The notes under the pieces were generated by a model. The model saw only the letters and a list, made by a program, of their open reading frames with translations, was not told the DNA's origin and did no database searches. This document shows, in pieces, positions 18,544 through 23,084 of a DNA stretch of 64,000 nt (the stretch's first letter is position 1; each line of letters begins with the position of its first letter). Location of the stretch: NCBI GenBank assembly GCA_040404065.1, contig JBBAJM010000001.1; one strand, 5' to 3'. Origin of the DNA: Candidatus Fonsibacter sp. (GTDB lineage Bacteria; Pseudomonadota; Alphaproteobacteria; Pelagibacterales; Pelagibacteraceae). The translations under genes and the position numbers were made by a program.

Positions 18544-19833
18544 TTAAAATGATAAATTGAAAGCAAAGTTTTTTCCAAGGCTAGCTTTAAGATCCTGACA
18601 AAATCTAGCAGCTTCTGCTCCATCTATTATTCTATGATCGTACGAAAGAGATACAGGCATCATTGCCCTTGGTATAAATTGTCCATCTATAAATATTTGT
18701 TTTGTTTCTGTTTTTCCAATTCCAATAATTGCTACTTCAGGATTATTTATAATTGGGGTAAAAAAACTTCCTCCAATCCCACCTAAGCTCGATATTGTCA
18801 TTGATCCTCCAAAAAATTCTTTTTTATCTATTTTGAGTTCTTTGCTTAATTTGCCAATCTTTCTAAGCTCATTACTTAAGGTTAGAAGATCTTTTTGATC
18901 AACATTTCTAATCTTTGGAACCATTAAGCCATGCGGAGTATCAACTGCAATTCCAATATGGAAATATTTTTTATAGATAATGTTTTCATTTCTCGATTCT
19001 AATGAACAATTAAAATTAGGGTATTTTCTCATCGCATTCACTAATGCTTTCATAATAAAGGCAAGAGGAGTTATTGTGATTTTTTCTTTTGTATTAAGAT
19101 TTATTAAATTTTTTCTAAAACTCTCCATATCTGTAACATCAACCTCATCAAATTGAGTTACGTGAGGAATTTCATTCCAAGCCTTAACTAAATGAGGTCC
19201 TGATAATCTTTTAATCCTTGGGATTTTTTGAATATCAATTTCTCCAAATTCTTCATGTTCAAATGGAAGTTTTTCTTCTTTTATCTCTACTTTTTTTATC
19301 ACCTCTTCTTTTAAGATTCTTGTGTTAAGAGCGCCCTTGATAAATTGCTTAACATCCTCTTCAACAACCCTTCCTTTTCTTGCGCTTCCATCTACTAATC
19401 GAAGGTCAACGCCTAACTCTCTAGCAAACTTTTTTATTTTTGGACTTGCACTTTTTGTATAATTATTTTCATTTTTAACAGGAGCAATACGAACTGTTTG
19501 TGTTTCTGTATTTTGACTTGAAACTGGAGTATTTAAATTTTCATTAGATTTATTATTATTTTTTGTATTTTTTTCTTCAATTTTTTCATTAGAGGATAAT
19601 TCAATTTGCCCTATTATGTCTCCCTGAGAAACTCTATCTCCAACTTTAACTTTTATATTTTTTATTTTTCCAGAAAATTGTGAGGGAACTTCAACGCTTG
19701 ATTTATCGCTTTCTAAAGTAACAAGGCCATCATTTTTTTTTATGTTTTGTTCTGGTTTTGCCAAAATTTCTATAATTTCTACATTTTTAAAATCACCAAT
19801 ATTTGGAACAATTAGATCAGCGGTTTCGGACAT
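18544..19833 (-). CDS. aceF: Pyruvate dehydrogenase E2, dihydrolipoamide acetyltransferase (one lipoyl domain)
   Basis: Lipoyl motif LESDKSSVEVP, E3/E1-binding ASPKIKKFARELGVDL, catalytic TISSLGGIGG and DHRIIDG. Confidence 0.95.
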   Translation of the reverse strand: MSETADLIVPNIGDFKNVEIIEILAKPEQNIKKNDGLVTLESDKSSVEVPSQFSGKIKNIKVKVGDRVSQGDIIGQIELSSNEKIEEKNTKNNNKSNENLNTPVSSQNTETQTVRIAPVKNENNYTKSASPKIKKFARELGVDLRLVDGSARKGRVVEEDVKQFIKGALNTRILKEEVIKKVEIKEEKLPFEHEEFGEIDIQKIPRIKRLSGPHLVKAWNEIPHVTQFDEVDVTDMESFRKNLINLNTKEKITITPLAFIMKALVNAMRKYPNFNCSLESRNENIIYKKYFHIGIAVDTPHGLMVPKIRNVDQKDLLTLSNELRKIGKLSKELKIDKKEFFGGSMTISSLGGIGGSFFTPIINNPEVAIIGIGKTETKQIFIDGQFIPRAMMPVSLSYDHRIIDGAEAARFCQDLKASLGKNFAFNLSF

Positions 19834-19838
19834 TTTAA

Positions 19839-22800
19839 CTATAATTTTGTTGGGATCGGCTTATTGGGATCAATTTTATATTTTTTCATTGCATCAGTGG
19901 CTACTTTTGAGGCAATTTTCTGTTCTTTGGCTAAAGTACTCAAAGTTGAAAATACAATAAATTCTTTATTTACTTCAAAGAATTTTCTTAAATTCTTTCT
20001 AGTGTCGCTTCTTCCAAAACCGTCAGTGCCCAAAGTTACATAAGTTCCTGGCACATAATTTCTAATTCCCTCAGATAAGGTTCTAATATAGTCAGTTGCG
20101 GCTATAAAAGGCCCCGTTCTTTTCTCAAAACATTTTTCTATATAAGTTTTTTCAGGTTTTTTATCTGGATGTAGTAAATTTTTTCTTTCAACTTCTATCG
20201 CATTTCTTCTAAGCTCAGTAAAACTTGTTACGCTCCAAACATCTGAATCAATTCCATAATCAGAACTTAATATTTCGGCCGCTTTAATAACTTCGTTTAA
20301 AATTGCTCCCGATCCTAGTAATTGAACTTTAGTTTTTCCTTTATTGTTTATTTCTTTAAAGAGATACATTCCCTTTAAGATATCTTCTTTTTTAATACTT
20401 TTCGGCATCGCTGGATGTTTATAATTCTCATTTAAAGTTGTTATATAATAATAAATACTTTCTTGTTTCTCATGCATTCTCTTTAATCCATCTTCAAAAA
20501 TTGCAGCTAATTCAAATGCAAATGTTGGATCGTAACTTACACAATTTGGAATCATAGAGGCCATTACTAAACTATGGCCATCTTGATGTTGCAGACCTTC
20601 ACCAGCCAATGTTGTTCTTCCAGATGTTGCTCCAATTAAAAATCCTCTACATCGAGAATCTCCTGCTGCCCAAGCAAAGTCGCCAATTCTTTGAAATCCA
20701 AACATTGAATAAAAAAGATAGATTGGAATCATTTCAATATTATGATTTGAGTAAGCAGTTCCTGCCGCTAACCAAGAAGACACAGCCCCAGCTTCTGTAA
20801 TTCCTTCTTCTAAAACTTGTCCTTTTTTATCTTCGCGGTAAGAACTTAATTGTTCCGAATCTACAGGTTCGTATTTTTGACCTTCGTGAGCATAAATTCC
20901 AATTTTTTGAAAGAAGCCCTCCATTCCGAATGTTCTAGCTTCATCTGGAATAATAGGAACTAATCTTGATGAATATTCTTTGTCTCTTAAAATTTTAGTA
21001 AGCATATTAACAAGAGCCATAGTCGTTGATAGTTCTCTATCTCCTGAATCCACATAAGAGGATTCAAAAATTTCTGGAGCTGGAGCTTTTAAAGCTTTTG
21101 TTTCTGTTCTTCGCGAAGGAATAAAACCACCAAGTTCTCTTCTTTTTTCTTTGAGATATTGAATTTCTTCTGATTTCTCATCAGGTTTATAGAATTCTAA
21201 ATTTTCAACCTGCTTATCTGTAATGGGAATATTAAATCTATCTCTTAAATAATGCATATCATTAACATCTAATTTTTTTTGTTGGTGGGTTGTATTAATG
21301 CTTTCTCCGCTTTTTCCCATTCCATAACCTTTAATAGTTTTTGCTATAATTACTGTAGGAGATCCTTTGTGATTTTGAGCCGCATGATAAGCAGCATAGA
21401 CTTTGTGAGGATCGTGACCGCCTCTATTTAGTTTCCAAATATCATCATCGGTCATATTTGAAACTAACTCTCTTAATTCTGGATACTTTCCAAAGAAATG
21501 ACTTCTAACATAAGCACCGCCTTTTGCTTTAAATGCCTGGTACTCTCCATCAACGCATTCCTCCATCCTTTTCATTAAAAGTCCTGTTTTGTCTTTTTCA
21601 AGAAGTGGATCCCAGTAAGATCCCCAAACAACTTTAATAACGTTCCATCCCGCTCCTCTGAATAATCCTTCCATTTCCTGAATTATTTTTCCATTACCTC
21701 TTACGGGTCCATCTAATCTTTGAAGATTGCAATTGATTACAAATATTAAATTATCTAATTTTTCTCTAGATGCTAATCCAATCGCTCCTGTTGATTCAGG
21801 TTCGTCCATTTCTCCATCGCCTAAAAAAGCCCAAACCTTTCTATTTTGATCTTCTATCAAAGATCTATTTTGTAAATATTTCATAAATCTTGCTTGATAA
21901 ATTGCAGTGATAGGACCAAGACCCATAGAGACAGTTGGAAATTGCCAGTAGTTAGGCATTAACCATGGATGCGGATATGAGGATAATCCTCCACCATCAA
22001 CTTCTTGTCTAAAATTTTCTAATTGTTTTTCTGTTAACCTTCCTTCCAAAAATGATCTAGCATAAATTCCAGGAGACGCATGACCTTGAAAATATATTAA
22101 ATCGCCAAGAAATTTTTCATTTTGAGCTCTCCAAAAATGATTAAAACCAACGTCATATAAAGTTGCGGCAGAAGCAAAAGTTGCTATATGACCTCCAAGC
22201 TCAGGAAGTTTTTTGTTAGCCCGAACAACCATGCAGGCTGCATTCCACCTAATTAAGGATCTGATTTTATTTTCTATTACTTGATCACCCGGAGACTTTC
22301 GTTCCATTTCCCTGGGGATTGTATTGATGTAAGGTGTTTTTTGATTATATGGTAAATTAGAACCAGAAATATACGCTTGATTAATCAATTTACCCAAAAG
22401 ATAATTAGCTCTTTTTGGACCATCTCTTTCAACAATACTGTTTAACGAATCAATCCATTCAGCGGTTTCTTGTGGATCCACATCGCCAACTGAATCTTGA
22501 TCAGAAAAATAATTAGTAAATTTTTTATATTCAACTTTTGTTTCAAAAGATTGTTTATGTTCTTCTTTTTTAACCTCTTCTGTAAAATTTATTTTTTTTA
22601 AAACTTTTTCAGCTTCTTGAATGATTTTTTCTGTTTCAGGTAATATAGATTTATTATCTTTAGCTACAGGTGCACTTTTAATGTCGTCATTAGTTAACGT
22701 GGCTATTAATGATCCTTTTGAGACTTTATCTCCAACTTTAACTTTTAAATTTGAGATCTTTCCATCAAAAGGGGATGGAACTTCTACGCTAGATTTATCG

Positions 22801-22919
22801 CTTTCCAATGTAAGTATGGGATCATTCTTTTTAATTTGATCACCTTCTTTTACTAATACTTCTATGATTTCAACGTTCTTAAAATCCCCTATATCAGGAA
22901 CCTTAATTTCTAAATTCAT
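19839..22919 (-). CDS. aceE: Pyruvate dehydrogenase E1, homodimeric type, with fused N-terminal lipoyl domain
   Basis: Residues ~1-76 are a lipoyl domain (LESDKSSVEVP). After a linker come DVDPQET...W, GGHIATFAS, YFQGHASPG, PTVSMGLGP, the ThDP motif GDGEMDEPES...N, EARTFGME and EGLQHQDG. Confidence 0.96.
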   Translation of the reverse strand: MNLEIKVPDIGDFKNVEIIEVLVKEGDQIKKNDPILTLESDKSSVEVPSPFDGKISNLKVKVGDKVSKGSLIATLTNDDIKSAPVAKDNKSILPETEKIIQEAEKVLKKINFTEEVKKEEHKQSFETKVEYKKFTNYFSDQDSVGDVDPQETAEWIDSLNSIVERDGPKRANYLLGKLINQAYISGSNLPYNQKTPYINTIPREMERKSPGDQVIENKIRSLIRWNAACMVVRANKKLPELGGHIATFASAATLYDVGFNHFWRAQNEKFLGDLIYFQGHASPGIYARSFLEGRLTEKQLENFRQEVDGGGLSSYPHPWLMPNYWQFPTVSMGLGPITAIYQARFMKYLQNRSLIEDQNRKVWAFLGDGEMDEPESTGAIGLASREKLDNLIFVINCNLQRLDGPVRGNGKIIQEMEGLFRGAGWNVIKVVWGSYWDPLLEKDKTGLLMKRMEECVDGEYQAFKAKGGAYVRSHFFGKYPELRELVSNMTDDDIWKLNRGGHDPHKVYAAYHAAQNHKGSPTVIIAKTIKGYGMGKSGESINTTHQQKKLDVNDMHYLRDRFNIPITDKQVENLEFYKPDEKSEEIQYLKEKRRELGGFIPSRRTETKALKAPAPEIFESSYVDSGDRELSTTMALVNMLTKILRDKEYSSRLVPIIPDEARTFGMEGFFQKIGIYAHEGQKYEPVDSEQLSSYREDKKGQVLEEGITEAGAVSSWLAAGTAYSNHNIEMIPIYLFYSMFGFQRIGDFAWAAGDSRCRGFLIGATSGRTTLAGEGLQHQDGHSLVMASMIPNCVSYDPTFAFELAAIFEDGLKRMHEKQESIYYYITTLNENYKHPAMPKSIKKEDILKGMYLFKEINNKGKTKVQLLGSGAILNEVIKAAEILSSDYGIDSDVWSVTSFTELRRNAIEVERKNLLHPDKKPEKTYIEKCFEKRTGPFIAATDYIRTLSEGIRNYVPGTYVTLGTDGFGRSDTRKNLRKFFEVNKEFIVFSTLSTLAKEQKIASKVATDAMKKYKIDPNKPIPTKL

Positions 22920-23008: not shown

Positions 23009-23084
23009 TGGTGCCCACAGCCGGAATCGAACTGGCCACCTCTTCCTTACCATGGAAGTGCTCTACCAACTAAGCTATGTGGGC
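23009..23084 (-). tRNA. tRNA-Thr(GGT)
   Basis: Reverse complement reads GCCCACA...CTTCC-AT-GGT-AA-GGAAG...TTCGATT...TGTGGGC-A-CCA, 76 nt. Confidence 0.95.

Follow-up and report, generated by a model that had tools for sequence, protein, structure and literature searches.

The pyruvate dehydrogenase (PDH) complex is the textbook case of substrate channelling by lipoyl arms on an E2 core. Lipoyl domains located off E2 are also known. They are found on E1-beta of heterotetrameric PDH complexes, as in Zymomonas mobilis and many Alphaproteobacteria, and on E3, as in Neisseria meningitidis and in the PdhL protein of Ralstonia/Cupriavidus. Here, we describe the aceEF locus in a stretch of 64,000 nucleotides (the window) from Candidatus Fonsibacter sp., a member of the SAR11 group (Pelagibacteraceae), which lives in marine and fresh waters. 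In this locus, the aceE gene encoded a homodimeric-type E1 preceded by a lipoyl domain in the same polypeptide. The window was taken from contig JBBAJM010000001.1 of the GenBank assembly GCA_040404065.1, a genome of 1.23 Mb that was 99.8% complete. Comparison of this locus with its relatives made it likely that the SAR11 PDH uses the tethered, lipoylatable domain of E1 as an arm and that the arm on E2 is optional.

Much of the SAR11 complex was the same as in the PDH of E. coli and Azotobacter, namely the E1 body, the binding and catalytic domains of E2, the aceE-aceF gene order and the shared E3. The difference was in the location of the arms. AceE of E. coli has no lipoyl domain and all the arms are on AceF (one to three lipoyl domains), whereas in SAR11 there were always one or two arms on E1 and from zero to one functional arm on E2.

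The Zymomonas-type E1-beta resembled the SAR11 protein in that both E1 polypeptides have an N-terminal lipoyl domain and both hosts are alphaproteobacteria. However, the organisation of the Zymomonas type is alpha2beta2 instead of the AceE homodimer. In the Zymomonas-type complexes, E2 keeps its own lipoyl domain. The profile for an E1-beta body with a lipoyl domain (NF008854) aligned to the AceE of the window at profile positions 3-138 only, which was its lipoyl part, with 25.5 bits against a cutoff of 454, and no match in the genome reached this cutoff. The Neisseria and Ralstonia PdhL proteins were similar in another respect, namely that an extra arm is present on a non-E2 subunit of a PDH with an AceE-type E1. 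In their case, however, the arm is on E3, while the E3 of the window's genome (466 aa, covering positions 1-461 of TIGR01350) had no lipoyl domain.

Two other fusions were relevant for the comparison. In the actinobacterial OdhA, the E2o catalytic domain is fused to E1o, there is no lipoyl domain, and the arms of AceF are used in trans (bioRxiv 10.1101/2020.07.24.212647). Moreover, a full LB-PS-E2-E1o fusion has been reported from Thermoleophilia (Bruch et al., bioRxiv 10.1101/2020.07.24.212647). These proteins provided precedents for an acyltransferase core without its own lipoyl domain and for a polypeptide that combines E1 with lipoyl domains. On the other hand, they have a 2-oxoglutarate E1o and an E2 catalytic domain on one chain. 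In SAR11, it was the lipoyl domain with its linker alone that was fused to E1p; E2 was encoded by a separate gene, the lipoyl-less partner was E2p, and the AceE polypeptide had no Pfam match to the 2-oxoacid dehydrogenase catalytic domain (2-oxoacid_dh, PF00198).

A full-text literature search, with incomplete coverage, returned no publication that described a lipoyl domain attached to an AceE-type E1, the architecture of the SAR11 PDH or a lipoyl-less PDH E2, and we know of no described PDH complex with this layout. The architecture itself was already visible in the automatic annotation of databases (metagenome clusters and ESM Atlas). The SAR11 arrangement was a variant of a known machine and not a new kind of system.

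The fused aceE gene and the aceF gene

The aceE gene was located at positions 19839..22919 on the minus strand and consisted of a lipoyl domain, a linker and a homodimeric-type E1. An earlier note on this DNA, made from the letters alone, had pointed to positions 22500-22919, corresponding to AceE residues 1-140 (the lipoyl domain and nearly the whole linker). It had claimed a complete N-terminal lipoyl domain with an intact lysine, a charged linker of about 60 residues, and no stop or frameshift on the way into E1. All of these claims were borne out. According to the open reading frame (ORF) list and the translation, the gene was a single ORF with one unbroken frame of 1026 residues. Its residues 4-75 (22695..22910, minus strand) matched the Pfam family Biotin_lipoyl (PF00364) with an E-value of 2.9e-21 and 75.5 bits against the gathering cutoff of 22.1. 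The intact lipoyl lysine was Lys42, located in the motif LESDKSSVEVP and encoded at 22794-22796. The following Lys/Glu-rich flexible linker was 66 residues long (residues 79-144; 22488..22685, minus strand) and had no Pfam match.

The remaining part of the protein was a canonical E1p body (residues 145-1026; 19842..22487, minus strand). Residues 145-1024 matched the NCBIfam profile TIGR00759 (aceE) with 1468 bits against a cutoff of 859.9, and the profile of the 'AKGDH_not_PDH' exception, TIGR03186, scored 1296.8, which was below its own cutoff of 1408.3. The body contained the Pfam domains PDH_E1_M, Transketolase_N and Transketolase_C_1 as well as the thiamine diphosphate-binding motif (GDGEMDEPES...NCNLQRLDG). 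Residues 6-883 of the E. coli E1p (PDB 1L8A) aligned to AceE residues 145-1023 with 1155 bits. Since the alignment began at residue 6 of 1L8A and at residue 145 of AceE, a complete canonical E1 was present behind a 144-residue add-on. The N-terminal segment of the E. coli E1p docks on the peripheral-subunit-binding domain (PSBD) of E2. This segment (1L8A residues 6-60) aligned to AceE residues 145-200, the putative E2-binding region of the SAR11 E1.

The AlphaFold2 model of AceE, which was built with 25 homologues, agreed with this division. Residues 1-78 were an all-beta domain with a predicted local distance difference test (pLDDT) of 70-88, and residues 79-148 were essentially disordered, the linker having pLDDT below 50 save for a weak helix at residues 94-109. 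The E1 body was modelled confidently (predicted template modelling score 0.76).

The aceF gene (E2p, 429 aa; 18544..19833, minus strand) started 5 nt past the aceE stop codon. Its product had the canonical E2p composition, namely a lipoyl domain (PF00364; residues 7-77, 19603-19815), a PSBD (E3_binding, PF02817; 19348-19449) and a catalytic domain with the DHRxxDG motif (PF00198; 18577-19230), all encoded on the minus strand. The lipoyl domains of AceE and AceF in the window, which the earlier note had described as closely similar, were 70% identical over 69 residues (BLASTP, E-value 9e-29).

Four ORFs in the whole genome matched PF00364, namely AceE, AceF, a 404-aa SucB-like ORF and a 146-aa BCCP-like ORF. 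The SucB lipoyl domain was about 30-35% identical to that of E1. The genome also contained the lipB and lipA genes. The only dihydrolipoamide dehydrogenase gene (lpdA, encoding E3) adjoined the SucB-like gene at G000:C1:241782-244361, about 140 kb from aceEF. Therefore, one E3 must serve both complexes. A tRNA-Thr(GGT) gene was found at 23009-23084 (minus strand), 89 nt upstream of the aceE start and on the same strand (ARAGORN; Rfam RF00005). The aceEF genes may be co-transcribed with this tRNA or their transcription may start just behind it.

Distribution of the fusion within and outside SAR11

The earlier note had guessed that the architecture could be shared across SAR11, and this turned out to be right. 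The N-terminal 330 residues were matched in 173 of the 180 Pelagibacteraceae genomes from an order-level sample, from residue 1-6 onward. In another search, aceE was matched in 138 of 151 genomes of the family, which belonged to 12 genera, with 68-92% identity. Almost all of these matches began at query residues 1-8. Two unpublished genomes (G015 and G175) were counted in the tallies only. Wherever the N-terminus of AceE was assembled, the E1 lipoyl domain was never missing. The fusion was also common in metagenomes. A collection of 5.8 billion proteins contained many fused proteins from JGI, ENA and NCBI, including one cluster with 1539 members, and more than ten clusters of ESM Atlas combined PF00364 with PDH_E1_N. 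In the scan of GTDB species, the closest named relatives were 'Candidatus Pelagibacterales' and 'Pelagibacteraceae' records, including metagenome-assembled genomes (MAGs) from the Baltic and from lakes.

This distribution left practically no room for an explanation by artefact, such as a chimeric assembly, a wrongly called start or a read-through of two genes. The same frame was present in more than 170 genomes, many of which consisted of a single contig, and in the independent metagenome assemblies in the JGI, ENA and NCBI clusters. The chimera that the earlier note had named as a way to be wrong was thus ruled out. The only observations in favour of an artefact were frameshifts in a few relatives (aceE of G166 and aceF of G004 and G072), with nothing of this kind in the window, where the frame was unbroken.

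These frameshifts separated the lipoyl region from the rest of the gene at three loci: L006 (aceF of G004), L059 (aceF of G072) and L019 (aceE of G166). They were either assembly errors in MAGs or single-amplified genomes (SAGs) or genes that were losing the domain. The SAR11 E1 proteins that initially looked unfused were rejected as artefacts. Those from G146 and G042 were cut by contig ends, and in G166 the lipoyl domain was present in the adjacent frame.

Some SAR11 genomes, namely G062, G046 (L050), G041, G056, G153 and G163, had an additional AceE paralogue without the fusion, which was about 890 aa long and 53-56% identical to the AceE of the window. In G062, its gene (L049:2489-5152, minus strand) was located directly upstream of TRAP transporter genes (DctP and DctQ) with no E2 nearby. 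This paralogue may be a decarboxylase or dehydrogenase for an imported 2-oxoacid.

In the sister family of the same order, the aceE query had no match in any of 20 genomes. An AceE-type E1 was absent from the 16-20 genomes searched there (G025-G040), and only a SucB-like lipoyl protein turned up. An ancestral PDH with a lipoyl domain on E1-beta was also considered for this family and rejected, as the corresponding profile (NF008854) had no match in the three genomes tested.

The lipoyl-AceE fusion was absent from every non-SAR11 genome searched; all Archaea and 45 matches of the phylum sample were left out of these searches. In the scan of GTDB species, full-length N-terminal matches came solely from Pelagibacterales or Pelagibacteraceae records, and the 70 other matches all began at query residue 85 or later, mostly at 132-146. 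The phylum sample contained 400 genomes, of which 165 had aceE. Among the matches listed, 12 genomes had long open frames, and no lipoyl domain was found upstream of aceE in them. Similarly, in a library of 1.84 billion representative proteins, the AceE homologues from outside SAR11 that were long or had an N-terminal extension all lacked PF00364. Three such extended homologues were considered and rejected because their extensions were GC-rich junk from mis-called starts. A partial lipoyl-AceE protein of 592 aa (P0004), which was labelled 'Candidatus Nanopelagicales bacterium' at NCBI, was 67% identical to the SAR11 N-terminus. It probably came from a mis-binned contig of a freshwater SAR11.

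Number, loss and selection of the lipoyl domains

We fetched about 55 aceEF loci and counted their lipoyl domains with a hidden Markov model built from the SAR11 lipoyl domains. There was one lipoyl domain on E1 in most genomes and two in two genera; the two-domain E1s were confirmed by Pfam on metagenome proteins of 1106-1128 aa. The number of domains on E2 was far more variable, although most genomes had one. In about 108 of 141 genomes, AceF was 412-455 aa long and kept one functional domain. Twelve genomes from six genera had a short E2 of about 300 aa without any lipoyl domain. The E1 domains in pairs, the short E2s and the degenerate second E2 domain described below were not part of the earlier note.

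The short E2 proteins consisted of a Met with 6-9 further residues, which were followed by the binding domain and then by the catalytic domain with an intact DHRxxDG motif. Unlike the AceF of the window, they therefore fell outside the canonical E2p definition, having only the PSBD and the catalytic domain. Their genes began less than 30 nt from the aceE stop codon. Even with E-values up to 1, Pfam returned only PF02817 and PF00198 for them and no lipoyl domain. In five of the short-E2 genomes, a search of the whole genome with PF00364 gave only AceE, the SucB-like protein and the BCCP-like protein above the cutoff, and one such genome (G139), which was 99% complete, had no second lipoyl-bearing E2. 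The lipoyl-less E2 also formed its own metagenome clusters, one of them with 161 members. Alongside these clusters, there were 417-aa E2 alleles that were 89-95% identical in the shared part. Together, this showed that the deletion of the lipoyl domain was real, recent in places, and tolerated.

When the lipoyl-less E2 state was mapped on the tree of the E1 core and on the tree of E2, five changes were obtained in both cases, and at least three of them were forced by well-supported branches. On the domain tree, the E2 domains from three genera clustered together, separately from the E1 domains of these genera. This pointed to losses rather than regains of the domain, and a regain of the E2 lipoyl domain from E1 was rejected on this tree, with the reservation of its weak resolution. 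The lipoyl domains of the E1 group were 70% identical to each other and those of the E2 group 68%, as compared with 64% between an E1 and an E2 domain. Moreover, all 56 E1 domains had VPD at a diagnostic position where 36 of the 39 E2 domains had VPN. The synonymous divergence (dS) between the two lipoyl domains of one genome was saturated (at least 1) in nearly all genomes. We also considered whether gene conversion had recently occurred between the two types of domain. This was rejected since dS was at least 1 nearly everywhere and the longest exact DNA match between them in the window was 21 nt. To judge from these comparisons, the E1 and E2 lipoyl domains are old paralogues.

Across the family, the E1 arm was the constant element, and the E2 arm was an optional one that had been deleted several times. 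In the lineages where it was deleted, acyl groups must be carried by the E1 arm alone. One could argue instead that the E1 domain is an accessory or redundant arm that adds reach or capacity, like the extra AceF domains of E. coli, with the real carrier located on E2 or, if E2 has none, borrowed from SucB. Most genomes do have one functional domain on E2, as noted above, and E. coli needs just one of its three AceF lipoyl domains. The lipoyl-less-E2 genomes also contained SucB-like lipoyl proteins. However, an accessory arm would not be expected to be the one that was never missing from an assembled N-terminus while its E2 counterpart disappeared repeatedly, even between alleles that were 94-95% identical. 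Borrowing from SucB would also be difficult since E1p is selective for its cognate lipoyl domain and the SucB domain had only the low identity given above. We therefore considered an accessory role unlikely.

A degenerate type of lipoyl domain was also found on E2. In the genus of the window and in one other genus, AceF seemed to have two lipoyl domains, of which one was functional and the other had no lysine. In these two genera (g1 and g16), the lipoyl lysine of the inner AceF domain was replaced by Glu, Asp or Asn in 13 of 13 sequences (EDEENAY, EDDDSAY, etc.), for example at L011:3872-5410 (G016) and also at L002-L010, L043, L044, L047, L048 and L059. With these residues at the lysine position, the inner domain could not be lipoylated. 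The statement of the earlier note that AceF has a single lipoyl domain was correct for this genome, but it did not extend to the genus, since the other 11 genomes had an AceF of 513-520 aa with the second, lysine-less lipoyl-like domain. Compared with these relatives, the AceF of the window had lost the degenerate inner domain.

The existence of such domains made it plausible that a lipoyl fold could have a non-catalytic role, and the E1 domain might likewise be regulatory or structural, for example an autoinhibitory pseudo-substrate, an adaptor recruiting E3 or E2, or a redox sensor. However, the E1 domain had kept its lysine in 56 of 56 SAR11 sequences, together with the invariant ESDKSS[V/M] motif and 21 invariant columns. 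In addition, the lipoyl-less-E2 lineages would have no PDH carrier at all if the E1 domain were not catalytic. A purely regulatory or structural role was thus quite improbable.

The selection on the E1 lipoyl domain was in line with its use as an arm. According to the NG86 method, the ratio of nonsynonymous to synonymous substitution rates (dN/dS) of the E1 lipoyl domain was 0.035, 0.137 and 0.045 in genera 1, 2 and 3, respectively. In the same order, the E1 core had values of 0.020, 0.041 and 0.034, and the fast-evolving linker had values of 0.20, 0.59 and 0.32. The estimates were only rough for two of these genera. The length of the linker was about 48-67 aa among the loci compared. The earlier note had stated that its idea would fail if the E1 domain were never lipoylated and dispensable. 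This was contradicted indirectly by the invariant lysine, the purifying selection and the lineages with a lipoyl-less E2.

Proposed function of the E1 arm and its significance

Based on these data, we propose that the E1 arm is a working and probably the principal acyl carrier of the SAR11 PDH. In the putative cycle, LipB and LipA would lipoylate Lys42 of AceE, and the arm would then be reductively acetylated by the E1 active site of the same dimer or of a neighbouring one. The E1 arm would pass the acetyl group on to the catalytic core of the E2 that E1 is docked to, and the single shared E3 would reoxidise the arm. The earlier note had suggested intramolecular reductive acetylation or a smaller complex as possible outcomes of the fusion. 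The tether of about 50-70 residues leaves E1 just ahead of the segment homologous to the E2-docking region of the E. coli E1p, so the arm should emerge beside the E1-PSBD contact. Its position would then be close to that of the innermost E2 lipoyl domain in the E. coli complex. This matching position may explain why a shift of the arm across a non-covalent interface works.

Taking all the evidence together, we lean towards the view that the E1 lipoyl domain is the primary arm of the complex and the sole one in several lineages, where the lipoyl-less E2 core would be served non-covalently by the docked E1. Several points weighed against it. The lipoylation of Lys42 and the turnover of the arm were inferred from comparative data. 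The lineages with a lipoyl-less E2 could in principle borrow the lipoyl domain of SucB or have a less active complex. Several of their genomes were MAGs or SAGs with a completeness of 83-95%, in which a second E2 could be unassembled. The trees were made with FastTree or by a quick IQ-TREE run, and the domain tree, which was based on 74 columns, was poorly resolved. Finally, two of the three genera used for the selection analysis had nearly saturated dS values.

If the E1 domain is indeed the primary arm, the number of arms in the complex would be set by the occupancy of E1, and each arm would be placed next to the E1-PSBD contact. The SAR11 PDH also offers a natural system for studying how the number and the attachment of arms influence active-site coupling, how lipoyl domains in cis or in trans are recognised by E1, and what the minimum size of a functional complex is. 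There was also a consequence for genome annotation. Namely, a lipoyl-less E2 of about 300 aa is no reason to label the SAR11 gene that encodes it as truncated or as a pseudogene.

For specialists, the surprise would be that the arm on E1 was the constant one and that E2 could do without an arm. The presence of the E1 arm throughout the family, where it was evidently sufficient in the lineages whose E2 had none, suggested that the attachment site of the arm is evolutionarily flexible. SAR11 are among the most abundant bacteria of the ocean and depend on pyruvate and small organic acids. Thus, a large flux of carbon is handled by the PDH of this group.

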